From contig JAFCDI010000015.1 of NCBI GenBank assembly GCA_017609755.1, forward strand, positions 1 through 9,329: a stretch of DNA of 9,329 nt, written 5' to 3'. The notes under the pieces were generated by a model. It saw nothing but the letters and a program-made list of their open reading frames with translations. It searched no databases and had not been told where the DNA came from. Of the stretch, positions 1 to 9,329 are shown piece after piece. Each line of letters starts with the position of its first letter. Position 1 is the first letter of the stretch. The position numbers and the translations under genes are program-made. This DNA comes from Candidatus Pacearchaeota archaeon (GTDB lineage Archaea > Nanobdellota > Nanobdellia > Pacearchaeales > GW2011-AR1).

Positions 1-1483
1 TCATTGCTGGAAGAGTTTGATTATATGCCCATAAATCATAAGTTGCATTATAAGTTGAACTCCAAGAATCATTATATGCTGTATAATTAGCACTCCAATA
101 AGGATCTGTTTCTGAAGTAAGAACTCCAGCTAAATAAGAGCCATCTCCAAAATAATAATCTGCTGTAACATTTCCATTTACACTTATATTTTCATTAAAA
201 ATAACACCAGAATCTGTAATTTCTATTACATTTTCATCATTTGCAATTAAATGCAGACTTTGGCTTCCATATCCAATACCATATCCAAAAGCTGCTTTGC
301 TAGGAATAAGGGTTGGATTTGTTGAGGAGGTAGGTTCATTTAACAAAGCAGCACTTGTATCAAGATTTCCTGAAAGAATATTACCAATACTTCCTCCAAA
401 AGTTACATTTGATGTAAAATTAGCAGATTTCCAAGAAGTTAATTGAGAAGAAGTTGCTTCTAAAATATTAGTATCTCCTGCAATAAGATGAATACTTGAA
501 CTTCCATATCCTAAACCATAACCCGTTTCATCTCTATTTGGAAGAATTGTAGGAATAGTTGAAGTAGATTGAACATTTGCAAGTCCCCAAGAACCAGAGA
601 CTCCGCTTGTAGCATTTTCATTAAAAATAACACCAGAATCTGTAACTTCTATTACATTTTCATCATTTGCAATTAAATGCAGACTTTGGCTTCCATATCC
701 AATACCATATCCTAATTCTCCTTGATTTGGAAGAATTGTAGGATTAGTGCTTGAAGTTGCCTCATTTAAAATTGCTCCACTCGTTGCTTCTGTTCCACTA
801 ATTTGCCCTCCAAAAGAAATATTTTCTCCAACACTCAAATTCTCACTTATTGAAGCATTTCCAAAAATCTCTAAATCATACTGAGGACTATCAGTTCCAA
901 TTCCAATAAAACCATTATTATAATAAAGGTTGCTTCCATTTTGACTCCACAAACTTCCACTGCCAGAAGAACCAAAAGAATTCCAATCAGTTCCATTATA
1001 TGCTTGAAACTCACTTCCAGTCCATCTAATAACTCCTGCTTCTGCTGTAGATGTGTCTCCAATTTGAATTCCTCCAGCAACATCTAATCTTTGTGAAGGA
1101 GTTGTAGTGCCTACGCCAATATATTCTGCTGTGATATTTCCAGTAGTTGTTATATTTCCTGTTCCAATCACACTTCCATTAAAGTCTATATCAATCACAA
1201 AAAGTTTAGTAATTCTATTAACTAAACTTCCAAGAAATCCAAAAAAACCAGTTCCAGTGGTTGTTATGTTGTAGGCACTCATATCCAAATTTTCATCAAT
1301 TTCAACTCCACTCAAAGTTATATTCTGAGCTCTAAAGGAATAAGGAGTTCGAGCAATTTTTGAGGAATCTTTTAGAGCTCCATCTCTATAATAACAAAGA
1401 TAATATTGCTCATCATAGTCAAGTGTGACATCTGGAAGATAATAAGAAATTATCCCCCTATTGTCAGTGGTTTGTTTGAATAT
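1..1483 (-). CDS. Large secreted/cell-surface repeat protein, main body. 494 codons are open from 1483 to the window edge and the C-terminus lies outside the window. Not listed in the supplied ORF track.
   Basis: I read every plus-strand triplet starting at positions 2,5,8...1481 and found no TTA/CTA/TCA (minus-strand stops) until TCA at 1484-1486. The translation begins IFKQTTDNRGIISYYLPDVTLDYDEQYY and contains GNITAEYIGVGTTTPSQRLDVAGGIQIGD and AGVIRWTGSEFQAYNGTDW. From memory, such motifs are typical of tail-fibre-like or large surface proteins. There are three ~71-aa modules of the form LNE(A/P)TSSTNPT(I/L)(L/I)P....GYG(I/L)GYGS.S(L/I)HLIA.D.N. I counted about 19 N-x-S/T sequons by eye. 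The first in-frame ATG is only at 1282. Confidence 0.8.
   Translation of the reverse strand, partial: MFKQTTDNRGIISYYLPDVTLDYDEQYYLCYYRDGALKDSSKIARTPYSFRAQNITLSGVEIDENLDMSAYNITTTGTGFFGFLGSLVNRITKLFVIDIDFNGSVIGTGNITTTGNITAEYIGVGTTTPSQRLDVAGGIQIGDTSTAEAGVIRWTGSEFQAYNGTDWNSFGSSGSGSLWSQNGSNLYYNNGFIGIGTDSPQYDLEIFGNASISENLSVGENISFGGQISGTEATSGAILNEATSSTNPTILPNQGELGYGIGYGSQSLHLIANDENVIEVTDSGVIFNENATSGVSGSWGLANVQSTSTIPTILPNRDETGYGLGYGSSSIHLIAGDTNILEATSSQLTSWKSANFTSNVTFGGSIGNILSGNLDTSAALLNEPTSSTNPTLIPSKAAFGYGIGYGSQSLHLIANDENVIEITDSGVIFNENISVNGNVTADYYFGDGSYLAGVLTSETDPYWSANYTAYNDSWSSTYNATYDLWAYNQTLPAM
188..286 (-). repeat. 99-nt intragenic repeat, copy A (98/99 identical to 614..712)
   Basis: Direct comparison: the copies sit exactly 426 nt (142 codons) apart, with a single mismatch (T220 vs C646). 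Flanking sequence is much more diverged. Encodes GYGIGYGSQSLHLIANDENVIE(I/V)TDSGVIFNEN. Confidence 0.9.
614..712 (-). repeat. 99-nt intragenic repeat, copy B
   Basis: See copy A. A third, degenerate copy of the same module lies at about 470..560 (GYGLGYGSSSIHLIAGDTNILE). Confidence 0.9.
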
Positions 1484-1589
1484 TCAAATGAATGTCATCT
1501 GTTATTGATTCAGCAAAAACAAAACTAATTGAAAAAGTTAGCACTAGAGTGATTACTAAAATCTGAATAAAATTCCTCTTTTTCCTCAT
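1464..1589 (-). CDS. Signal-peptide segment (41 codons + TGA), probably the true N-terminus of the surface protein. It is +1 out of frame with the body, so the gene is frameshifted (pseudogene, assembly indel, or recoding).
   Basis: ATG at 1589..1587 gives MRKKRNFIQILVITLVLTFSISFVFAESITDDIHLNIQTNH*. This has a basic n-region, a hydrophobic core and a VFA/ES cleavage-like site. The stop TGA is at 1466..1464. The body frame opens at 1483, so the two frames are both open only across 1467..1483. Confidence 0.6.
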   Translation of the reverse strand: MRKKRNFIQILVITLVLTFSISFVFAESITDDIHLNIQTNH

Positions 1590-1772
1590 CTTTTTTTTGG
1601 CTTTTTTGGAACTGATTTTTTTGACTTTGGAATAGGATATTTTTTGAAAATTAATTCGTTTTTTTTAACTGAAAGATACCAAACACTTGCCATAATATAA
1701 TATTATAATAAAATAATAATATAGAATAGGGACTAACTTGGTACTGAAACGAAAGTAAAACAGGCCCAAAGC

Positions 1773-1891
1773 GTAGGAAAAAAGTAAGAAAAAATGATTT
1801 TACCGACGGTAAGAAACAAAAAAGAAAAATTTTCTTACATTTATCTTACAAAAAGAAAAAGTAGGGAAAAAATTTAATGTATTTTACCTAC
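1773..1891. promoter_or_regulatory. Array of seven GTA(A/G)G-plus-A-rich motifs in both orientations. Candidate operator or iteron array upstream of the RHH-like gene.
   Basis: Plus strand: GTAGGAAAAAA 1773-1783 and GTAAGAAAAAA 1784-1794 (a tandem 11-mer), GTAAGAAA 1809-1816, GTAGGGAAAAAA 1861-1872. Minus strand: tttcttac 1831-1838 (a perfect 8-bp inverted repeat with 1809-1816, 14-nt spacer), cttac 1845-1849, ttttacctac 1882-1891. A pure A/T tract follows at 1898-1920. Confidence 0.35.
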
Positions 1892-1971
1892 CTTTTTTAT
1901 ATATTATATATAATATAATAAGATTTATAAAAGACATTTTCTTATATTTATTATAAAATAAAAGAGGAAAA

Positions 1972-2160
1972 ATGAAACAACCTGTTAAAATTTATCTGGA
2001 TTCTGAAACAAAAAAGAAGTTGTTACAGAAAGTCAGTGAAACAGGGTTTTCTGGCAGAGGTGCTTTATCAAAATTTATGGAAAAAATAGCTGTTGAAGAT
2101 ATTTGTTTTCTTGATGAAAATTTAAGAAAGATGTTAAAAACAATTTTTCCAAGCAAATAA
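1972..2160 (+). CDS. Small (62 aa) putative ribbon-helix-helix (CopG/Arc-like) DNA-binding protein
   Basis: ATG is preceded by GAGG (1964-1967) with a 4-nt spacer. The N-terminus VKIYLDSETKKKLLQKVSETGFSGRGALSKFMEKIA fits a beta-strand/helix/turn/helix RHH pattern. The assignment comes from the pattern only. Confidence 0.45.
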   Translation: MKQPVKIYLDSETKKKLLQKVSETGFSGRGALSKFMEKIAVEDICFLDENLRKMLKTIFPSK

Positions 2161-2175
2161 AAATTCTTAAGTAAC

Positions 2176-2184
2176 TTTTAAATA
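2176..2184 (+). promoter_or_regulatory. TATA-like box (TTTTAAATA) for tRNA-Ile
   Basis: Centred about 28 nt upstream of tRNA position 1 (2208), the usual archaeal TATA-to-start distance. Confidence 0.35.
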
Positions 2185-2207
2185 CAATAAAAATCTAAAT
2201 TTTCTAT

Positions 2208-2328
2208 GAGCCTATAGCTCAGCCTGGTTAGAGCGCTGGTCTTATATGACGTTTGTTCATTAGAACATTTGCTCTTGAGATTAGTCTAAGAGAGCCAGAG
2301 GTCCTCGGTTCAAATCCGAGTAGGCTCA
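2208..2328 (+). tRNA. tRNA-Ile(UAU) with a 46-nt intron at the canonical 37/38 position; no encoded CCA
   Basis: Hand-folded cloverleaf: acceptor GAGCCTA/TAGGCTC; D arm GCTC-AGCCTGGTTA-GAGC; anticodon stem CTGGT/GCCAG (one U.G pair); loop C-T-TAT-A-[intron]-A; variable AGGTC; T arm CTCGG-TTCAAAT-CCGAG; discriminator A. The body resembles archaeal tRNA-Ile (TAGCTCAGCCTGGTTAGAGCGC...AGAGGTC). Confidence 0.85.
2247..2292 (+). other. tRNA intron with a bulge-helix-bulge-like junction
   Basis: CTTA (2241-2244) pairs with TAAG (2287-2290) to form the central 4-bp helix. It is flanked by 3-nt bulges TA|T (2245-2247) and AG|A (2291-2293), which places both cuts at 37/38. An outer helix forms from GAC (2248-2250) and GTC (2284-2286). 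There is an internal hairpin TGTTC-atta-GAACA (2254-2267). Confidence 0.7.
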
Positions 2329-2330
2329 TA

Positions 2331-2347
2331 GTAGATTGTAAATCTAC
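2331..2347 (+). other. 7-bp hairpin immediately 3' of tRNA-Ile (GTAGATT-gta-AATCTAC), followed by the palindrome TTAAATTTAA (2348-2357)
   Basis: Perfect complementarity read directly from the sequence. Function unknown; it could be a processing or termination signal, or part of the tRNA-derived remnant. Confidence 0.4.
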
Positions 2348-2358
2348 TTAAATTTAAA

Positions 2359-2441
2359 GTGCGCTTTCGGTTCAAATACAACAAATTGCCTAGTAATTTG
2401 TGTTTCAGAAAATTTAGTATTTTCTGAACCGAGTAGGCTCA
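2359..2441 (+). pseudogene. tRNA-Ile-derived fragment: D-arm 3' side + T arm + 3' acceptor strand. It lacks the anticodon arm and the 5' acceptor strand, and a 51-nt double hairpin is inserted in the T loop.
   Basis: GTGCGCT (2359-2365) resembles GAGCGCT (2231-2237). TCGGTTCAAAT 2367-2377 is identical to 2305-2315. CCGAGTAGGCTCATA 2429-2443 is identical to 2316-2330. The insert 2378-2428 folds into ACAAATT-gcctagt-AATTTGT (2381-2401) and TTCAGAAAAT-ttagt-ATTTTCTGAA (2404-2428). The single T-stem change (C to T at 2366) keeps pairing as U.G. Confidence 0.55.
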
Positions 2442-2465
2442 TAAATATGTAAATAAAAAAAGAAA

Positions 2466-2660
2466 ATGGCAAAAAAAAGATTGTATAGAAGCAAAAAAGA
2501 AAAAATGATTGCTGGAATTTGTGGAGGAATTGCAGAATATTTTGACGCAGATCCAACAATTGTGAGATTAATTTGGGCGATTGCAACTCTAATTTCACTT
2601 GGATTTGGACTTCTTGCTTATTTGATTGCATGGATAATTATTCCTGAAAAAAGCAAATAA
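2466..2660 (+). CDS. PspC-domain small membrane protein (64 aa)
   Basis: KRLYRSKKEKMIAGICGGIAEYFDADPTIVRLIWAIATLIS, followed by a hydrophobic helix and IIP, matches the PspC-domain signature as I recall it (L.RS...+.i.GVCgGlAeYf..Dp..VRl). Confidence 0.85.
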   Translation: MAKKRLYRSKKEKMIAGICGGIAEYFDADPTIVRLIWAIATLISLGFGLLAYLIAWIIIPEKSK

Positions 2661-2832
2661 AAGAGTAGTAGAATAATTTAAAAACTAATATCTTTTATTC
2701 TAATCATACTTTAGTGTCAATTGAAAATTAGGCACTATTATAAAGGAAAATTCAATAAAAAACTCTTGGTTAAAATCAGGCTTGACCTAATTTTAAAGGA
2801 AGAGTCATAAGAGAAACCTTGGTGTCTTTTAT

Positions 2833-2905
2833 GCCCCCATAGTTCAGAGGCCAAGAATGCAGCCCTTTCAAGGCTGTGACCCGAGTTCGAATCTCGGTGG
2901 GGGCG
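2833..2905 (+). tRNA. tRNA-Glu(UUC), 73 nt, no intron, no encoded CCA
   Basis: Hand fold: acceptor GCCCCCA/TGGGGGC; D arm GTTC-AGAGGCCAA-GAAT; anticodon stem CAGCC/GGCTG; loop CT-TTC-AA; variable TGAC; T arm CCGAG-TTCGAAT-CTCGG; discriminator G. Confidence 0.9.
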
Positions 2906-2909
2906 CTTT

Positions 2910-3776
2910 CTAATCAAATTTAACAGCATATTTTCTAGATTTTTTAGGAAAATAAAAACTAATTTTTTTCTCTTTAAAATTAACCTCACAATCTGCTCCA
3001 ATTGGAACACACAAATTTGGAGTTGTATGTCCAAAATTAAGATTAAAAATCAAAGGAATATTAGGAAAAAGATATTCAATCATTTTTCTCATTAATTTAG
3101 GATTTTTTACTCCAAGTCCTCCAAAAACCAAGACTTTTGGTTTAAAATAAGAATGATTTTTAAGAGAAAGAAGGAGATTAAAAATCTTATATTCTGTAAA
3201 GCCAGTTTCCTCTAAAAATACTATTTTTCCTCTAAAATCAAGAGAAATATAAGGAAAACTTTCTATTAATCTGCCTAAATTACCTCCAATTGCTTTTCCT
3301 TTTAAAATATTTAAAGATTCATTTGTAAATTCTTTAAATTCAAGTCCATAATTTCTCATTTCTAAAGCATTTTTTAAGGCAGCTAAACTCACTTTATCAA
3401 TATTCTTACTTAAATTAGGTCCATGAAGAGAAATAATTCTTAATTTTACATGCAAATAAAGCAATAAAGGAGTTATATCACTATATCCTATAAGAAGTTT
3501 TTTTCTCTTAATTCTTCTTTTATTAATCAAAGGCAAAAAATGAAGTACTCCAGAGCCTCCTTTACAACACATAACAGCATCTGATTTAGAATTCATAGCC
3601 AAATAAAAATTTTTTAAACGTTCATTTGCAGAATCCGCCCACTTATTAAACAATTTTTCTTTAGATTTAAAATCTTCTAATTTCTCAAAACCAATTTTTT
3701 TTATATTCTTATTAATATTTTTGGCTTCTTTTGAATCACAAAAAGAAGATGGAGTTAAAATAGAACAAATTTTCAT
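2910..3776 (-). CDS. Peptidase family S66 (LD-carboxypeptidase LdcA / microcin C immunity MccF-like) serine peptidase, 288 aa
   Basis: S66 hallmarks appear in the correct order and spacing. These are DAVMCCKGGSGV, the nucleophile motif LIGYSDIT (Ser99), GGNLGRL, acidic FLEETG (Glu189/190) and FGHT (His250). The Ser-to-Glu (~90 aa) and Glu-to-His (~60 aa) spacing is comparable to characterised LdcA. The ATG overlaps the upstream stop as ATGA (3773-3776). Confidence 0.85.
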   Translation of the reverse strand: MKICSILTPSSFCDSKEAKNINKNIKKIGFEKLEDFKSKEKLFNKWADSANERLKNFYLAMNSKSDAVMCCKGGSGVLHFLPLINKRRIKRKKLLIGYSDITPLLLYLHVKLRIISLHGPNLSKNIDKVSLAALKNALEMRNYGLEFKEFTNESLNILKGKAIGGNLGRLIESFPYISLDFRGKIVFLEETGFTEYKIFNLLLSLKNHSYFKPKVLVFGGLGVKNPKLMRKMIEYLFPNIPLIFNLNFGHTTPNLCVPIGADCEVNFKEKKISFYFPKKSRKYAVKFD

Positions 3777-4738
3777 TTCAAATATTTATTTTTTAATTTT
3801 TCTGCAACTGTTTTATTCAAATCATAAACATAATTCTTTAATCCCCATCCAGTTCCAACTCCATTATACTCCATAAAGAGTCTTTTTTCATTATTTGTTT
3901 CTATCCAGTCTATGCATCCTAATTCTGCATCAAAAAGACCCATTATCCGTCGAGAATCACTAAGTTCAGCAGGTGTAGGGTAATAGTTTTTTGTTAAATG
4001 TTTTCTCTTAACTTGTCCTTCTTTCTCCCAAGGCATAGATCTATCATAAATAATTCTAGAATCAAGAAATTTTCCATCAAAAAAAATCATTCTTTTTTCA
4101 TTTAGAATTTCAACTTCTTTTTGAACAATATAATTTTCAACATTTAAATTCCTAAAATTGTCAATATTTTGTTTATTAATTCTAAAAAGAGAATTTCCTC
4201 TTTCTCCAAAACGATGTTTTATTATATATTTTTCATTTGCATTGTTTATAAATGATTTCAATAAATCAAAATTAGAAAAATAAGCTGTTTCTGGAGTTTT
4301 AAATCCCAAAGATTGAAGTTTTAAAATACTTTTTTTATCTTCTGACAAAGTTCCTTCTTTAGAATTCACTAAATTTCCAATATTTCCTTTAGATTTATTA
4401 TCCTCTAAATAATTAATAATCTCTTCTACTTCATCTCTTAAAGGAAAAATTCCTTCTTTCATTAAAAAATTACTAGCTAAAAATAAGTCACAACTCACTC
4501 CTTGTTCAATAATATAAGGTTGAAAATTCTCTTTAAATGCATAAACAGGTGCTTTTTCTCCTGTTCTAACTTCTTTTTGAACATCTCCTGCTAAAACAAA
4601 TCCATAATCTTTAGCTCCAAACACTTCTCTAAATCCACTATATCTTTGAAAATTAATTGCTAAATCATCTCTATATTCATAAATTGTCCTTTCTAATCTA
4701 TTTAAAAAAGTTTGACTTGCTAGTGTTTTTACTTTCAT
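3773..4738 (-). CDS. Divergent ATP-grasp family ligase (321 aa) with an unassigned ~150-aa N-terminal region
   Basis: The C-terminal half has the ATP-grasp layout: YIIKHRFGERGNSLFRI (Lys + Gly-rich loop), IVQKEVE (hinge Q/E-E), EKRMIFFDGKF, and ELGCIDWIE...LFMEYNGVGTGWG (metal-binding D/E-x-N region). A GGAG motif lies 8 nt upstream of the ATG. ATGA overlaps occur at both ends. Confidence 0.7.
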   Translation of the reverse strand: MKVKTLASQTFLNRLERTIYEYRDDLAINFQRYSGFREVFGAKDYGFVLAGDVQKEVRTGEKAPVYAFKENFQPYIIEQGVSCDLFLASNFLMKEGIFPLRDEVEEIINYLEDNKSKGNIGNLVNSKEGTLSEDKKSILKLQSLGFKTPETAYFSNFDLLKSFINNANEKYIIKHRFGERGNSLFRINKQNIDNFRNLNVENYIVQKEVEILNEKRMIFFDGKFLDSRIIYDRSMPWEKEGQVKRKHLTKNYYPTPAELSDSRRIMGLFDAELGCIDWIETNNEKRLFMEYNGVGTGWGLKNYVYDLNKTVAEKLKNKYLK

Positions 4739-5667
4739 TTTATTTTCTCCATTATAAAATCAACTGTTTTACTTATTGCTTCAGGATATGCTCTTGTAGC
4801 AATTATTGCATTTGTTTCAATTAAACGAGAAATTCTCTTTCCAGATTTTGATTTATCATCCATTATATCAATTCCAATACCATAAAGTCCTGATTTAGCA
4901 GCAACTTCTAAGCAAAGTTCTTTTTCATCTTCTCTTAAATTTGTTAAAATAGCTTTTCCACCTAATGCAAGATTATCTTTCCATTGTCCTTTTCCAGGAA
5001 CTTTTCTATAAGAAATAACAAATTCAAAAGAATTTCTTTCTCCAGGATTTCCTAATAAAATAACTCTTTTTCCTCCTTCAAAGCAATAATGTAAAAATTT
5101 CTGTGCAATAACCTCTATTTTTTCATTTTGAGTTATTTTTTTAAATTCTTCATTATAATTGTCTCTAGAAGTTATTCTAAAAACTCCATCTCCATGTGCT
5201 CCAGAAGGATCTTTTACAATCATTTTGCCTTTAAATTTATTTTTTAATAAATCCTCTAATTTTGAAACATTTGATGTGATTCTTGTTTCTGGAATATATT
5301 CAGGATAATTTTTAACATAAGTTTTTTTATTTGCAGAATTATAAGTTGGAATTGGTAAATTAAAGTGAAAAGTGTTTATTTGTTGAAGATTTTTTGCAAA
5401 ATCCAAATTAACAATATCACTCATATCTAAAATAGCATCATAATTCTCTAAATTTAAAGAATAAGCAATCTCACTTCTTGTGATATTTCCATTAAATTTA
5501 AACAAAGGGTAACTCAGTGCTTTTTTTGTTTTAAAATCAATGCTTTGAGGATCTAATTGAAAAACATTGCAATTTTTATTTAAAAAATTTTGGACATAAA
5601 TATCAAAACTAGGTCCTTCACTATAAAAAGAACGAATCTTATCTATTAAAGCTATTTTTTTACTCAT
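4735..5667 (-). CDS. Glutathione-synthetase-like (GshB-family) ATP-grasp ligase, 310 aa from ATG 5667 (the track's 5703 start is a TTG)
   Basis: Aligns by eye to E. coli GshB. KMIVKDPSGAHGDGVFRI matches IILKPLDGMGGASIFRV. IAQKFLHYCFEGGKRVILLG matches MAQNYLPAIKDGDKRVLVVDG. WKDNLALGGKAILTNLREDEKELC...GLYGIGIDIMDD...RLIETNAI matches TRGNLAAGGRGEARPLTESDWKIA...GLIFVGLDIIGDRLTEINVTSP. Confidence 0.8.
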   Translation of the reverse strand: MSKKIALIDKIRSFYSEGPSFDIYVQNFLNKNCNVFQLDPQSIDFKTKKALSYPLFKFNGNITRSEIAYSLNLENYDAILDMSDIVNLDFAKNLQQINTFHFNLPIPTYNSANKKTYVKNYPEYIPETRITSNVSKLEDLLKNKFKGKMIVKDPSGAHGDGVFRITSRDNYNEEFKKITQNEKIEVIAQKFLHYCFEGGKRVILLGNPGERNSFEFVISYRKVPGKGQWKDNLALGGKAILTNLREDEKELCLEVAAKSGLYGIGIDIMDDKSKSGKRISRLIETNAIIATRAYPEAISKTVDFIMEKIK

Positions 5668-6607
5668 TTTTATTTGGATAGAACTCAAGAATATGATTAA
5701 CAATTAACTCTACCCAATTCTCTTCTCCCTCATCATAACCAGGTGTAGGATTGTTTTCAATAACAACTGGGCCATTTTCTGTGAGTTGTATATCCACTTC
5801 ATTTAAATTAGCCCCAATAGCTTTTGAAGCAAGAACAGCTAAATTACGTTCTTCTTCTGATGCTTCATAAGGAATTATTTTAGAACCATGATTACAACTT
5901 CCCATCCAAAATTTATTGTCTCCATTTCTAGAAACAAGTGTTCTTCCATAACTTATTAAAGGTTTACCATCAATTACTCCAATTCTAATATCATGATTTT
6001 TGTTTGGTTTTACAAATTCTTGAACAAGATATTTTCCTGAAATTATGTCTTTATCTCTTAAAACTTCTTCAAGTTTATTTAGATTGTCTATTTTTTGAAC
6101 ACCTATTCCTTTTCCTCCTGTATTTCTCTTTATAATCAAAGGAAAGGAAAATTCCGATGCAAAATAATTTGCTCCTCTTTCTCCTGTTATTTTCTCTGTT
6201 CTTGGAGTTGGAATAGCATATTTTTGCATACATTCAAAAGCAAAAAATTTATCATAATCTGCTGCACAAGCAGTTAAAGGATTTATTGTTTTACAATTCT
6301 CTTTACTTAACCAAGAAACAGCATTTAATCCTTTATTAATAACTTCTTGGCTTGCTTCACTAGGATAAATTCTATTCATCCAAATTTTATATCCTTTATG
6401 AACTAAATCTGATAATTCAGGCATTAAAATTTCTTCTGGATTTTTAACTAAAGAATAATCTCCACTAATTTTATTTGCATCAATAAGAACAACATCAATA
6501 TTTTTTTTCTCAAATTCTTTTTTAAAATAAGAAATATCCCAAGGTTCTACTCCCTTTTTATCGTACAAAATACCTACTTTTGTGTTTGAATATGCCTTTT
6601 CTTTCAT
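5660..6607 (-). CDS. RimK-family ATP-grasp ligase (alpha-L-glutamate-ligase-like), 315 aa from ATG 6607 (the track's 6616 start is a GTG)
   Basis: FPLIIKRNTGGKGIGVQKI, YLVQEFV, HDIRIGVIDGKP and NLNEVDIQLTENGPVVIENNPTPG parallel the RimK motifs PLVVK..GTQGIGV, LVQEYI, DIRCLVVGDE and GVDIL...GPLVMEVNASPG. The stop overlaps the next gene's ATG by 8 nt (ATGAGTAA, 5667..5660). Confidence 0.85.
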   Translation of the reverse strand: MKEKAYSNTKVGILYDKKGVEPWDISYFKKEFEKKNIDVVLIDANKISGDYSLVKNPEEILMPELSDLVHKGYKIWMNRIYPSEASQEVINKGLNAVSWLSKENCKTINPLTACAADYDKFFAFECMQKYAIPTPRTEKITGERGANYFASEFSFPLIIKRNTGGKGIGVQKIDNLNKLEEVLRDKDIISGKYLVQEFVKPNKNHDIRIGVIDGKPLISYGRTLVSRNGDNKFWMGSCNHGSKIIPYEASEEERNLAVLASKAIGANLNEVDIQLTENGPVVIENNPTPGYDEGEENWVELIVNHILEFYPNKNE

Positions 6608-6619
6608 TGCGATCACTTT

Positions 6620-6637
6620 CTATTTCATCCATTTCAT
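6620..6637 (-). CDS. 5-codon mini-ORF ATG AAA TGG ATG AAA TAG (MKWMK*) directly after the SD; speculative
   Basis: The ATG lies 3 nt after GGAGG. The ORF is in the same frame as the RimK-like gene. Its TAG stop is followed by AAA GTG ATC GCA and then ATG 6607. Confidence 0.25.
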   Translation of the reverse strand: MKWMK

Positions 6638-6646
6638 TCACCTCCC
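6638..6646 (-). promoter_or_regulatory. Strong Shine-Dalgarno-like site GGGAGGTGA
   Basis: Plus strand tcacctccc (6638-6646). This is the longest match to the canonical anti-SD that I found in the window. It is 21 nt from GTG 6616 and 30 nt from ATG 6607, too far to serve the ligase gene directly. Confidence 0.5.
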
Positions 6647-6726
6647 GATTAATAAAACTTTAATCATTACTTATTATAATTTGCTTTTATTTATAAATTT
6701 TTCGTACTTCTTATCAAGTAACAAAC

Positions 6727-6733
6727 AAAAAAA
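6727..6733 (-). terminator. Oligo-T tract (T7 on the minus strand) 9 nt after the Elp3 stop; possible archaeal intrinsic terminator
   Basis: aaaaaaa on the plus strand at 6727-6733. Archaeal RNAP terminates at oligo-T runs. A TATA-like TTTATAAAT follows (6690-6698) for the downstream operon. Confidence 0.3.
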
Positions 6734-6741
6734 TAGTAAAA

Positions 6742-8103
6742 TCAAAGATTTTTTACCATATAAGTGGATTCCAATTCATATCCTAAATTTCTATAATACT
6801 CTCTAACACCTATTCCAGAAATAACAAATAATTTGTTAATTTTCTTTTTTTTGGTAATTTCTTCTGCTTTTTTCATTAATATTTTTCCTAATCCTTTATG
6901 CTGAGAAATCTCTCCTTTCTCACCTAATTTCAAAGCTTGGCCATAAACATGAAGCTCTCTTACAATTGCTTTTTTATTAAAAATTCTTAATCTTAATAAT
7001 CCAAACAAGATATCATTTTTATTTACAAATTCTAAAAAATATTCTTTTCCATTTGAAGCAGAATATTTTGTTATTTTTAATTTTAAATCCAAATCAAGGA
7101 ATTTTTCTCTAGAAAGAGCAAATCCAATCTCACGATATCTTATTTCTTTAAGTTTAATTTTATTTTTTCTTAATTCTCTTTCAATTTCTTTACGTAAATC
7201 AATTCTAGTAGTTCCTGCAACCAAATATTCTGGAGGAATCTCTCTCATAATCCTCATTACCCTACAATATCTAGGAACAATCTTCAACATTTTTATTAAT
7301 ATTTTCTCAATTTCTTCTTTAGAATAAGGCAAATACTCTTTATTCCAATATCTTTTTTCTAGTTCAGAACCAGGCATAACCTGACAAGGATATAATTTTA
7401 ATTGATCTGGTTTAAATTTAGAATCTGTAAAGAGTTTTTTAAAGAGTTTTAAATCCTTTTTTATATTACTTCCAGGTAAACCCGGCATAATATGATATCC
7501 TATTTTAAATCCTGCATTTTTCAATGCTTTAGTAGCATCTATTACATCTTTTACTTTATGTCCTCTATTTACTAATTCATATATTTCGTCATCAATAATT
7601 TGAACTCCTAATTCAATTCGAGTAACTCCCCATCTCCTCAGTTTATCTATATGCTTTACACAAACATCTGGACGAGTCTCAATACAAAGTGCAACACATC
7701 TAGAACTAGAAATCTCATTTTTCCTCTGAGCTTCAGTTATACTACTCGAACAAACTCCATTTAATCCATCATAACAACCCTTAATAAAATTCTCTTGAAA
7801 ATTTTTAGAATATTCTAAAAAAGTTCCGCCCATAATAATTAATTCTATTTTATCTATTGGATGATTCATTGCTCTAAATGCTTTTAATCTATTTCTAATC
7901 TGCTTATAAGGATTATAATTAACTTCTCTTGCACGCATAACAACAGGGGATTTAGGAGTATAACTTTGAGGAACATTTAAATTAGGACAATAAATACATC
8001 CTCCATGATTACAGGGTCTAGGAGGAAGCATAACAGCTACAGGAGTTATTCCTGAAATTGTTTTTACAGGTTTTCTAATCTCTCCTTTCTCTGGTTTTTT
8101 CAT
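6742..8103 (-). CDS. elp3: Elp3-family tRNA U34 carboxymethyl (cm5U) synthase with a radical SAM + GNAT acetyltransferase fusion; 453 aa from ATG 8103 (the track's 8112 start is a GTG)
   Basis: Elp3-type Cx4Cx2C cluster motif CNHGGCIYC, then IMGGTFL, IETRPD, TRIELGVQ and GYHIMPGLPG. The C-terminal GNAT acetyl-CoA motif is QHKGLGKIL, followed by YYRNLGYE. The length and domain order are typical of archaeal Elp3. Confidence 0.9.
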   Translation of the reverse strand: MKKPEKGEIRKPVKTISGITPVAVMLPPRPCNHGGCIYCPNLNVPQSYTPKSPVVMRAREVNYNPYKQIRNRLKAFRAMNHPIDKIELIIMGGTFLEYSKNFQENFIKGCYDGLNGVCSSSITEAQRKNEISSSRCVALCIETRPDVCVKHIDKLRRWGVTRIELGVQIIDDEIYELVNRGHKVKDVIDATKALKNAGFKIGYHIMPGLPGSNIKKDLKLFKKLFTDSKFKPDQLKLYPCQVMPGSELEKRYWNKEYLPYSKEEIEKILIKMLKIVPRYCRVMRIMREIPPEYLVAGTTRIDLRKEIERELRKNKIKLKEIRYREIGFALSREKFLDLDLKLKITKYSASNGKEYFLEFVNKNDILFGLLRLRIFNKKAIVRELHVYGQALKLGEKGEISQHKGLGKILMKKAEEITKKKKINKLFVISGIGVREYYRNLGYELESTYMVKNL

Positions 8104-8115
8104 GAAAATCACAGA

Positions 8116-8133
8116 ATTTTTAACCTTAAAATA
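8116..8133. promoter_or_regulatory. Back-to-back TATA-like boxes in the 42-nt Elp3/Trm9 divergent spacer
   Basis: ATTTTTAA (8116-8123) is centred ~26 nt upstream of ATG 8146 on the plus strand. TATTTTAA (minus strand, 8133-8126) is centred ~26 nt upstream of ATG 8103. No SD precedes either start, which is consistent with leaderless mRNAs. Confidence 0.35.
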
Positions 8134-8145
8134 CTTGCTATCTCA

Positions 8146-8784
8146 ATGAATCAACAAGAAGTTTGGAATAAAATAGCAAAAAAATGGAAAAATTTTAGAA
8201 TTAATACAATCTATGAAGTAAAAGAATTTTTAAAAAATAAAAAAGGAAAAGTTTTAGATTTGGGTTGTGGAAGCGGAAGAAACTTTATTGAAAAAAAGGA
8301 TTTAGAATTTTATGGAATTGATTTTAGTGAAGAAATGGTTAAAATAGCAAGAAAAAAACCTTATAAAAAAGTTCTAGTATCCAATACATGGAAAATAAAG
8401 TTTCCAGACAATTTTTTTAATTATGCACTTTATATTTCTGCTCTCCATTGTATTCCTTCTAAAAAAAATAGAGAAAAGAGCTTAATAGAACTAGCAAGAG
8501 TTTTAAAACCAAAAGCAAGAGCGCTTATTAGTGTGTGGAATAAGGAACAACCTCAATTCAAAAACAAAGGAAAAGAAATCTACAGAAAATGGAGATTTCA
8601 AGATAATGGAAAAGAATCTTATGTAGAAAGATACTATAGACTTTACAATAAAAAAGAAATAACAAATCTATTAGAAAAATACTTTAAAATAATAAAGATT
8701 TATGGAAAAAACGAGAAAGGGGATAAAGGAACTCGTAGATTTTCAAGAAGAAACTTAAATATAGAAGTAGAAGTAAAAAAATAA
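8146..8784 (+). CDS. trm9: Class I SAM-dependent methyltransferase, Trm9/ALKBH8-MT-like (tRNA cm5U34 to mcm5U34 methyltransferase candidate), 212 aa
   Basis: SAM motif I VLDLGCGSGRN. The Trm9-like N-terminus is VWNKIAKKWKNFRINTIYEVKEFL (yeast VYNEIAPHFSQTRYKPWPIVTQFL). ISALHCIPSKKNREKSLIELARVLKPKARALISVWNKEQ parallels ISIAVVHHWSTRERR...GGQALIYCWALEQ. ERYYRLYNKKEI parallels YRYYHLYREGEL. The comparison is from memory. Confidence 0.7.
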   Translation: MNQQEVWNKIAKKWKNFRINTIYEVKEFLKNKKGKVLDLGCGSGRNFIEKKDLEFYGIDFSEEMVKIARKKPYKKVLVSNTWKIKFPDNFFNYALYISALHCIPSKKNREKSLIELARVLKPKARALISVWNKEQPQFKNKGKEIYRKWRFQDNGKESYVERYYRLYNKKEITNLLEKYFKIIKIYGKNEKGDKGTRRFSRRNLNIEVEVKK

Positions 8785-8786
8785 GC

Positions 8787-9287
8787 CTATTTCTTTCTAA
8801 TTATTTTCAAAATATCAAAAAAAGATTTTTTATCAAAAGAAATAATCTTGTTTGAAATTGGATTAATATTTACTTTTAACATTCCTAAACCAGAAACAAA
8901 AACAGTTGCAGTAATAACATCTTTTCCTTCTAAATTTTGAAGAGATAAAAGAATCTTTTGAATTTTGCTTTTAATTTTCTCTTCAATCATTCTATTTCTA
9001 ATTAATTTCTCTATTTCCTCTAAATCAAAATCATAATCTATAGAAAGTTTTCTAGGAATTTTATCTTCAAAACTCTCTAAAGGAACTTTTTCCACTCCAT
9101 TTTCTAATTTAAAACTAAATACCTTTTTCAAACTAGGAGCATAAACATCTAAATGTCTCTGAAAGTCAGATTTTTCAAAATCAATAACAAAAAATCCAGA
9201 GCAGATATATGCATCAGGATTCTTTAAAACAAAGTCTTTATATTCCTCAGAATCATTTAATTTTTCCAAATAAAAGCTTAAATTCAT
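8787..9287 (-). CDS. Hypothetical protein, 166 aa, no family recognised
   Basis: Clean ATG-to-TAG ORF, convergent with the methyltransferase (2-nt gap). TTATAAAA on the minus strand (9315..9308) sits ~25 nt upstream of the ATG. Composition is typical of the neighbouring genes. Confidence 0.6.
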   Translation of the reverse strand: MNLSFYLEKLNDSEEYKDFVLKNPDAYICSGFFVIDFEKSDFQRHLDVYAPSLKKVFSFKLENGVEKVPLESFEDKIPRKLSIDYDFDLEEIEKLIRNRMIEEKIKSKIQKILLSLQNLEGKDVITATVFVSGLGMLKVNINPISNKIISFDKKSFFDILKIIRKK

Positions 9288-9329
9288 ATCTAATTTAAAG
9301 AATTTTCTTTTATAAGTTTTAGTATATAA

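Follow-up and report, generated by a model that had tools for sequence, protein, structure and literature searches.

The window analyzed here, a 9,329-nucleotide stretch of Candidatus Pacearchaeota DNA (GenBank assembly GCA_017609755.1, contig JAFCDI010000015.1, positions 1 to 9,329), carries an operon encoding three divergent ATP-grasp ligases, G1 to G3, and a serine peptidase of family S66, G4. The genes are translationally coupled, their active sites are intact, the set is co-conserved among DPANN archaea, sister loci open with an aspartate racemase gene, and no precursor or carrier gene lies nearby. The reading that we favor, with a probability of about 0.5, is that the operon directs the soluble, cytosolic and ribosome-independent assembly of a short peptide or peptide conjugate, containing a D-acidic residue in the racemase-bearing forms, and that an LdcA-like enzyme trims or turns over the product. 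From these observations we infer the order of the steps, the substrates, the part played by the S66 enzyme and the physiological role.

All four genes lie on the minus strand, packed between 2910 and 6616, as judged from the list of open reading frames (ORFs) and from the sequence itself. G1, a RimK-family ATP-grasp ligase (5660-6616), comprises 318 aa if read from the GTG at 6616 or 315 aa from the ATG at 6607, and is followed by G2, a GshB-like ligase (4735-5667; 310 aa), G3, a divergent ligase that provides the family-specific marker of the operon (3773-4738; 321 aa), and G4, the LdcA-like S66 serine peptidase (2910-3776; 288 aa). The stop codon of G1 and the start codon of G2 share the 8-nt overlap ATGAGTAA at 5660-5667, and the G2/G3 and G3/G4 junctions are each an ATGA, at 4735-4738 and 3773-3776. 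An earlier annotation of the window (the original prediction) had claimed a single tight expression unit, and these overlaps bear it out; its placement of the unit in an archaeon, here a member of the DPANN group, and its remark that the unit contains no LysW-like carrier, transporter or regulator also held. None of the four proteins possesses a hydrophobic, transmembrane or signal segment, and all are therefore predicted to be soluble.

The G3 family is small: in 5.8 billion proteins it comprises 21 clusters (90% identity), and among 1.84 billion there are 30 representatives at E<=1e-30. Its six matches in 185,579 species genomes all belong to DPANN metagenome-assembled genomes, five labelled Candidatus Woesearchaeota and one labelled Pacearchaeota. 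Gene order is kept, with junctions of no more than 15 nt, in approximately 15 independent loci whose proteins are 35-76% identical, which makes the operon more than a chance arrangement. Two types can be distinguished. Type A, that of the window, has the order G1-G2a-G3 with or without the S66 gene (the window's G2 being G2a) and is represented by eight distinct loci: the window, which is identical to L002 and L003, and L004, L005, L007, L008, L010, L012 and L015. Type B, the sister type, has the order racemase-G1-G2b-G3, again with or without the S66 gene, and was recovered from divergent S66 relatives and from a metagenome scan with a sister-clade G3 alignment (L013, L014, L016, L018, L020 and L024, together with L022 and L023, which have no middle ligase). 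The S66 proteins of both types fall within one operon-linked clade of 17 clusters at E<=1e-50, the next matches lying at 1e-17. Type B units occur in neighborhoods unrelated to that of the window, beside CTP synthase and DnaG in L013, beside SRP54 and ribosomal proteins in L020, and in a further setting in L023, so that the linkage reflects more than inherited gene order. In L016, an Elp3 gene whose product is 72% identical to that of the window precedes racemase-G1-G2b-G3, which places the racemase form at the same chromosomal site.

The composition of the unit is modular. G1, G2 and G3 are contiguous in all window-type loci, and the S66 gene is missing from two of the eight type A loci (L005 and L010) and from one (L020) of the six type B loci readable past G3. 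Reduced forms consist of racemase-G1-G2b (L027), of G1 with one G3-like ligase (L029), or of racemase-G1-G3-S66, a variation in gene number that is expected for stepwise addition. The middle position is held in type B by G2b, which aligns to G2a with an hhalign E value of 2.5e-7; the two are more distant from each other than either is from G1 or G3, and the middle ligase has thus probably been swapped for a non-orthologous one. The expectation that the genes would prove co-conserved was therefore borne out in part: the set is kept across genomes and neighborhoods, but the conserved unit is not the four-gene set, as the losses of S66, the different middle ligase of type B and the two-ligase forms show.

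Several of these variant loci have features of their own. Both type A loci without S66 carry a convergent ORF of approximately 90 aa directly after G3 (L005, 10955-11239; L010, 8969-9235; both minus strand), without a Pfam match; the two ORFs are homologous (32% identity, E 6e-13). Divergently upstream of the two-ligase variant in L029 lies a gene for an 89-aa PP-binding (carrier-protein) product (9098-9367, minus strand), with two small acidic ORFs beside it and an amino-acid permease nearby. The L027 contig (Ga0369713_1000010; MBW6442283.1) is labelled Patescibacteria at NCBI; it carries Elp3, a threonyl-tRNA synthetase with a tRNA-Thr_ED domain and the rest of the window's neighborhood, and is probably a mislabelled DPANN archaeal contig.

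The most informative partner of the ligases is the aspartate racemase, which is found in sister loci only and so lay outside the view of the original prediction. A gene of the Asp_Glu_race family lies directly 5' of G1 in seven of the seven distinct type B operons with a readable 5' side. The loci with this arrangement are L013, L014, L016, L018, L020, L023, L024, L027 and the bacterial L028, and the two genes often overlap by ATGA. The racemase scores 211-213 bits with TIGR00035 (cut-off 93) and aligns to Pyrococcus horikoshii AspR (1jfl) at 1.4e-58, with both catalytic Cys motifs, PCNTAH and GCTE, matched. Racemase plus G1 is the most widespread pair outside type A. In a neighbor-joining tree of G1 rooted with RimK and computed without support values, type A and L029 form one clade and the racemase-bearing forms occupy the other basal branches, suggesting an ancestral racemase that the lineage of type A has since lost. 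Neither the window nor the 8-10 kb surrounding the other window-type operons contains a copy. The position of the racemase next to G1 shifts the reading of the operon toward a D-amino-acid peptide and gives meaning to the label LD-carboxypeptidase for G4.

The bacterial copy of G1, in L028, is nested among racemase-bearing DPANN copies in the same tree. Its contig is genuinely bacterial, encoding sigma-70 and a DnaG with a DnaB-binding domain. The cluster (9220-14409) consists of the racemase, a G1-type ligase, a 428-aa protein without a family match, a radical S-adenosylmethionine (rSAM)/SPASM enzyme and a KamA-family 2,3-aminomutase. The last two are further suppliers or modifiers of non-proteinogenic amino acids, and L028 may represent a distinct small-peptide cluster built on the common racemase-G1 core.

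Each of the three ligases retains the glycine-rich loop, the ATP-binding lysine and the D...E-x-N magnesium ligands. G1, which is present in every related locus, matches the Pfam RimK model (PF08443) at 78.1 bits (cut-off 21), and its sequence matches in the Protein Data Bank (PDB) are RimK and LysX. The closest NCBIfam models, rimK_fam, LysX, MptN and CofF, were all scored below their cut-offs (TIGR00768, 121.3 against 143.4; TIGR02144, 87.9 against 275.6; MptN, 82 against 350; CofF, 66 against 300), as was the S6-ligase equivalog NF007764 (49 against 331). Across 16 orthologs, conservation of K160, D272, E284 and N286 is 95% or higher. G2 contains a GSH-S_ATP domain (PF02955; 81.9 bits, cut-off 23) and falls below both GshB equivalogs (NF003573, 84 against 272; TIGR01380, 80 against 299). 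Its PDB match, 1gsa (1.4e-7), is aligned over residues 96-272 only, and the Pfam scan gave no GSH-S_N match, so that the N-terminal domain of GshB is not found in G2; K152, D267, E284 and N286 are conserved. In G3 no Pfam domain reaches threshold, with GSH-S_ATP appearing only below it. The AlphaFold2 model of G3 (pLDDT 90.1) nevertheless has a complete three-domain ATP-grasp fold, with approximately 340 columns aligned to ATP-grasp structures, and K174, D277, E290 and N292 are invariant.

Pairwise global identity among G1, G2 and G3 is 19.7-21.3%, pairwise BLAST E values are 0.001 or worse, and profile-profile comparison by hhalign relates the families at 1e-6 to 1e-15. On these values we regard the ligases as ancient paralogues rather than recent duplicates, which agrees with the three distinct enzymes of the original prediction; the catalytic residues of all three are intact. 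That prediction had also allowed that the enzymes might belong to pathways already explained. The cut-offs for LysX, CofF, MptN, Ddl, GshB and LdcA all went unreached (the best model for D-Ala-D-Ala ligase gave 42.5 against 243), and none of the four proteins attains the curated cut-off of any characterized family considered, namely RimK, LysX, MptN, CofF, GshB, Ddl, CphA (25 bits against 850), MvdC/D and LdcA. The defining partners of these systems are likewise absent.

The affinities of G3 bear on one alternative, in which the operon matures a ribosomally made, post-translationally modified peptide (RiPP) of the graspetide kind: G3 would macrocyclize a precursor, G1 and G2 would add residues, and the S66 enzyme would trim the leader or tail. 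The best NCBIfam matches of G3 are indeed MvdD and MvdC, its family profile finds only the graspetide macrocyclases MdnC (7e-6) and AMdnB (2.5e-5) in the PDB, and the best Foldseek match of its model is MdnC (5e-15), with PsnB also among the closest structures; moreover, the rSAM/SPASM enzyme of L028 is of a kind found in RiPP clusters. With the models for MvdD (TIGR04184) and MvdC (TIGR04185), however, G3 scores 31.7 and 31.6 bits, where 475 and 425 are required, and RimK, ArgX and GshB follow MdnC in Foldseek at near 1e-12. The model superposes about equally on MdnC/PsnB, RimK, ArgX and GshB (E 5e-15 to 1e-11, TM score ~0.6), and hhalign puts G3 no farther from its operon partners G1 (3e-10) and G2b (1e-12) than from the graspetide enzymes. 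A comparison of 17 loci shows no small ORF to be conserved in the 700 nt that flank each end of the operon, and we know of no S66 enzyme that serves as a leader peptidase. We consider RiPP maturation very doubtful.

The sole mini-frame beside the operon was considered as a precursor gene in its own right. On the minus strand upstream of G1, a Shine-Dalgarno-like motif, GGGAGGTG (6639-6646), is followed by ATG AAA TGG ATG AAA TAG (6620-6637), the whole element spanning 6620-6646; position 6646, originally taken as the end of the unit, is the first base of GGGAGGTG and not a start codon. The ATG at 6637 opens a five-codon frame in the frame of G1, which the TAG at 6620-6622 closes, and G1 must therefore start at the GTG at 6616 or the ATG at 6607. 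Its initiation must occur 21-30 nt downstream of the mini-frame ATG, or else depend on re-initiation or read-through. At the same site the Pacearchaeota ortholog locus L008, at 76% identity, reads ATG AAT CAG and is open into G1, with CAG in place of the window's TAG; the TAG recurs with the same sequence in two further assemblies (L002 and L003), and so cannot be put down to faulty sequencing. A biarylitide- or pheganomycin-style precursor, MKWMK* (6620-6637), was rejected because the frame is that of G1, is not conserved and is read through in L008. The mini-frame is best read, from this comparison, as an N-terminal remnant of G1 and not as a precursor-peptide gene.

The original prediction of an S66 peptidase was correct: G4 has both domains of the family (PF02016, N-domain, 65 bits; PF17676, C-domain, 56 bits), and its Ser-Glu-His triad, S99, E189 and H250, is invariant in 19-22 sequences. 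The LdcA equivalog NF008424 gives 70.4 bits against a cut-off of 378. The AlphaFold2 model (pLDDT 93.6) finds its best fold match in the LD-carboxypeptidase of P. aeruginosa (1zl0/1zrs; TM 0.85/0.83, root-mean-square deviation (rmsd) 2.5 Å), and E. coli LdcA fits at TM 0.84/0.80 and 2.9 Å. MccF structures cover the model less well (TMt ~0.70-0.76, mostly 0.70-0.72, at 3-6 Å, versus TMt 0.79-0.83 at 2.5-2.9 Å for LdcA), and the length of G4, 288 aa versus approximately 335-345 aa for MccF, fits the absence of the MccF insertion.

This comparison weighs on the toxin/immunity role that had been proposed for the operon, in which a toxic peptide, or a mimic of an aminoacyl-nucleotide, would be made by the ligases and rendered harmless by the S66 enzyme, following the logic of the mcc system. 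MccF-family proteins do occur among the sequence matches of G4, and antibiotics made by L-amino-acid ligases exist. The better fit of G4 to LdcA speaks against this role, as do the absence of mcc-like genes from every locus examined, with no MccA/B/C/D/E-like gene, exporter or adenylating enzyme, and the zero PADLOC matches, on which an anti-phage defense reading was also rejected. Additionally, L005, L010 and L020 keep the ligases without the supposed immunity gene, which would amount to self-poisoning, and the unit sits amid housekeeping genes with a host-like GC content. An antibiotic with self-immunity is thus extremely unlikely, and the original proposal was not sustained.

In three loci the S66 domain is fused to a C-terminal domain of approximately 300 aa (L007, 9003-10802, and L012, 9001-10803, both type A; L017, 1162-3027, type B). 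The added domain was scanned in two of the proteins, where it gave DUF1861 (PF08950) at 7.9e-21 (L007) and 2.1e-30 (L017); the L017 copy also matches the structures of Leishmania MPT-2 (9e-10) and MPT-4 (7e-6). We take these to be GH130-like mannoside phosphorylases/transferases. The fusion hints that the substrate of the S66 enzyme may be, or may adjoin, a glycoconjugate.

The fit to LdcA and the fused sugar-acting domain, which would suit a glycopeptide substrate, can also be accommodated by the salvage of scavenged murein peptides, with G4 acting as a true LdcA on imported L-Ala-D-Glu-diaminopimelate-D-Ala and the ligases rebuilding or re-using the products. A protein with an SLT (lytic murein transglycosylase) domain, unexpected in an archaeon, is encoded at a distance of ~6 kb from the operon, on the 159-kb contig of the window itself (L003, 2533-3255, minus strand), and bears on this alternative in its favor. 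Opposed to it are the LdcA score given above and the lack in the unit of Mpl, AmpG, NagZ, an amidase or a transporter. Catabolism leaves the coupling of three ATP-consuming ligases to the peptidase unexplained, the in-operon racemase makes D-Asp, which is no core stem-peptide residue, and it is the ligases that are constant and the S66 enzyme that is dispensable. We judge salvage to be quite improbable.

For the favored reading, assembly of a short peptide or conjugate, the following scheme can be proposed. Enzymes of the RimK/GshB/MdnC branch turn the carboxylate of a peptide or amino acid into an acyl-phosphate for subsequent attack by an amine. Each ligase of the operon would likewise activate a carboxylate and couple it with the amino group of the following unit, each bond having its own ligase, so that the number of ligases, two or three, would equal the number of steps. 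G1 would most likely add an Asp- or Glu-type residue: to our knowledge, all characterized relatives in the RimK/LysX/MptN group add an acidic amino acid, and G1 is always present, always first and always beside the racemase when there is one. In type B the coupled racemase would supply this residue as the D-isomer. G2 and G3 would add further units, and the affinity of G3 for macrocyclases that activate side chains makes an isopeptide bond, beta- or gamma-linked, possible. G4, as an L,D-carboxypeptidase, would remove the C-terminal residue of the product or of an over-extended intermediate, in trimming or turnover. The window's type A, lacking a racemase, would be a derived form that either yields an all-L version of the peptide or relies for its D-residue on a gene in another part of the genome. 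The product might serve as a compatible solute, as a building block of the envelope or of a glycoconjugate, or as a cofactor tail. Whereas the build half of the scheme is well supported, the trim half is a plausible accessory; a product of tetrapeptide size, as first suggested, is pure inference.

Certain considerations weigh against this scheme. With no racemase within 8-10 kb of window-type operons, the D-residue may not apply to the window's locus, for which it is an extrapolation, and the G1 tree has no support values. The dispensability of S66 in L005, L010 and L020 means that trimming is not obligatory, and a ligase coupled to a peptidase that undoes ligation looks futile unless regulated. 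Finally, since G3 is nearest to RiPP macrocyclases and RimK and LysX act on proteins, the substrate could be a protein or peptide encoded elsewhere.

The last point can be developed into a possible, though unlikely, alternative in which some protein whose gene lies elsewhere is extended by G1 to G3, at its C-terminus or on an acidic side chain, much as RimK modifies ribosomal protein S6 and LysX/ArgX modify LysW, and G4 removes the tag. G1 is closest in sequence to RimK and LysX/ArgX, the G3 model superposes on the ArgX-LysW and RimK-RpsF complexes about as well as it does on other structures (TM ~0.6), and the RimK/GshB/MdnC branch, to which all three ligases belong, has many members that use polypeptide carboxylates. 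Yet no conserved carrier or target gene stands beside the operon in any of approximately 15 loci. LysW systems keep their carrier and LysZ/Y/J/K nearby; none of these is present here, and the small ORFs flanking the operon ends include no LysW-like carrier. All equivalog scores lie far under their cut-offs, and partners such as the racemase, together with the aminomutase of L028, are characteristic of small-molecule assembly and not of protein tagging.

Given an aspartate racemase within sister operons, the resemblance of the G4 fold to LdcA and the repeated joining of G4 to a GH130-like domain, one more specific product is conceivable, a murein-stem-like oligopeptide with a D-amino acid, possibly linked to a sugar, in whose synthesis ATP-grasp enzymes would take the place of Mur ligases and an LdcA-type enzyme would edit the chain. 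We consider this improbable. If true, it would mean that DPANN archaea have their own, independent equivalent of the pathway that makes and trims peptidoglycan stem peptides, in service of an envelope or host-interface structure.

Transcription of the operon likely starts from a putative archaeal promoter represented by the TATA-box-like element TTTATAAATAAAAG (6684-6697, minus strand), which lies in the 125-nt gap after the Elp3 stop codon. The element is the sole match in the window and was matched 0 times in 200 shuffles; the same 14-mer lies upstream of G1 in L008, and other loci have TATA-like AT-rich boxes at comparable distances from G1. In L012 (approximately 5900-5990), a short tandem array of AAATTTCAAAA-like units is found upstream of G1, between the TATA-like box and the Shine-Dalgarno motif. 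The window is AT-rich (GC 23-35%). Scanned with bacterial models, the window shows no terminators and has fewer sigma-70-like sites than shuffled sequence, a result that is uninformative for an archaeal host. The Rfam scan detected two tRNAs only, and no riboswitch or leader RNA.

A tRNA-Glu(UUC) gene (2833-2906, plus strand), found by ARAGORN and Rfam, is convergent with the operon and ends 3 nt from the G4 stop codon. It marks the 3' boundary of the operon and is not a member, its proximity being a matter of neighborhood synteny only; a functional partnership with Glu-type ligases was rejected, as the distance ranges from 3 nt to ~4 kb and the gene is missing from L010 and L011. The second tRNA (2208-2328, plus strand; Rfam, 58.8 bits) was overlooked by ARAGORN. 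Its length of 121 nt implies a presumed intron of ~48 nt next to the anticodon loop, as is typical of intron-containing archaeal tRNAs, and its anticodon region reads CTTATA, possibly Ile-UAU. Downstream of the operon, and syntenic in close relatives (L002-L004 and L008), are genes for a 64-aa PspC-domain protein (2466-2660, plus strand; 95 bits) and a 62-aa product without a family match (1972-2160, plus strand). The remaining neighbors are Elp3 (526 bits), a methyltransferase, threonyl-tRNA synthetase and tRNA genes. The synthetase on the window's own contig has the tRNA-Thr_ED editing domain typical of the archaeal enzyme, and, together with Elp3 and the presumed intron-bearing tRNA, marks the window by its gene content as archaeal.

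DPANN genomes are stripped down and retain little biosynthesis, yet many lineages of the Woesearchaeota and Pacearchaeota type keep this unit of three to five genes, which spends ATP on linking amino acids and, in type B, would produce a D-amino acid as well. Its product, if identified, would be among the few dedicated biosynthetic products of DPANN archaea and a rare case of archaeal D-amino-acid peptide chemistry, and could bear on their envelope, osmoadaptation or host interaction. For enzymology, the operon offers four new subfamilies, three of highly divergent ATP-grasp ligases and one of S66 peptidases, and the unit, being small, soluble and self-contained, is directly testable by heterologous expression.

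Among known systems, LdcA resembles G4 in its two-domain fold, its catalytic triad, its soluble cytosolic nature and its similar length, and the racemase of type B, by supplying a D-residue, makes an L-D scissile bond plausible for G4. The two differ in that G4 is archaeal, is only ~20% identical, lacks murein genes and Mpl around it, has ATP-grasp enzymes and not Mur-type ligases as its coupled partners, and in some loci bears a fused GH130-like domain. RimK, LysX/ArgX, MptN and CofF share with G1 the RimK ATP-grasp domain and the full set of catalytic residues; unlike them, G1 has no S6-type, LysW-type or cofactor-pathway partner nearby and, in its wider family, is coupled to an aspartate racemase, as none of them is. 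The graspetide (microviridin/plesiocin) enzymes MdnB, MdnC and PsnB, the best sequence and fold matches of G3, differ from it in the adjacent precursor that G3 lacks.

In Enterococcus faecium, the D-aspartate ligase Aslfm is encoded next to the aspartate racemase Racfm, which feeds D-Asp to this ATP-grasp ligase. The operon logic is that of type B, a racemase beside an ATP-grasp ligase, but Aslfm belongs to another ATP-grasp subfamily, acts as a single ligase on UDP-MurNAc-pentapeptide to form a cell-wall cross-bridge, and has no S66 partner. Ligases are also paired with hydrolases in cyanophycin synthetase/cyanophycinase, in glutathionylspermidine synthetase/amidase and in the NAGGN cluster of Ngg and an M42 peptidase. 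As is proposed for the operon, an ATP-grasp-type ligase there has a genetically linked peptidase that acts on its product, a non-ribosomal peptide of small or oligomeric size; the operon departs from these pairs in its peptidase (S66 rather than S51, CHAP or M42), its three divergent ligases, its linkage to a racemase and its restriction to DPANN.

No description of the gene set was found in the searchable full-text literature, a coverage that does not extend to the survey of Iyer et al. (2009). What seems new is a modular, DPANN-centered operon in which a racemase and either two or three ATP-grasp ligases are joined by an S66 peptidase; what is familiar, from the systems compared above, is its overall logic.

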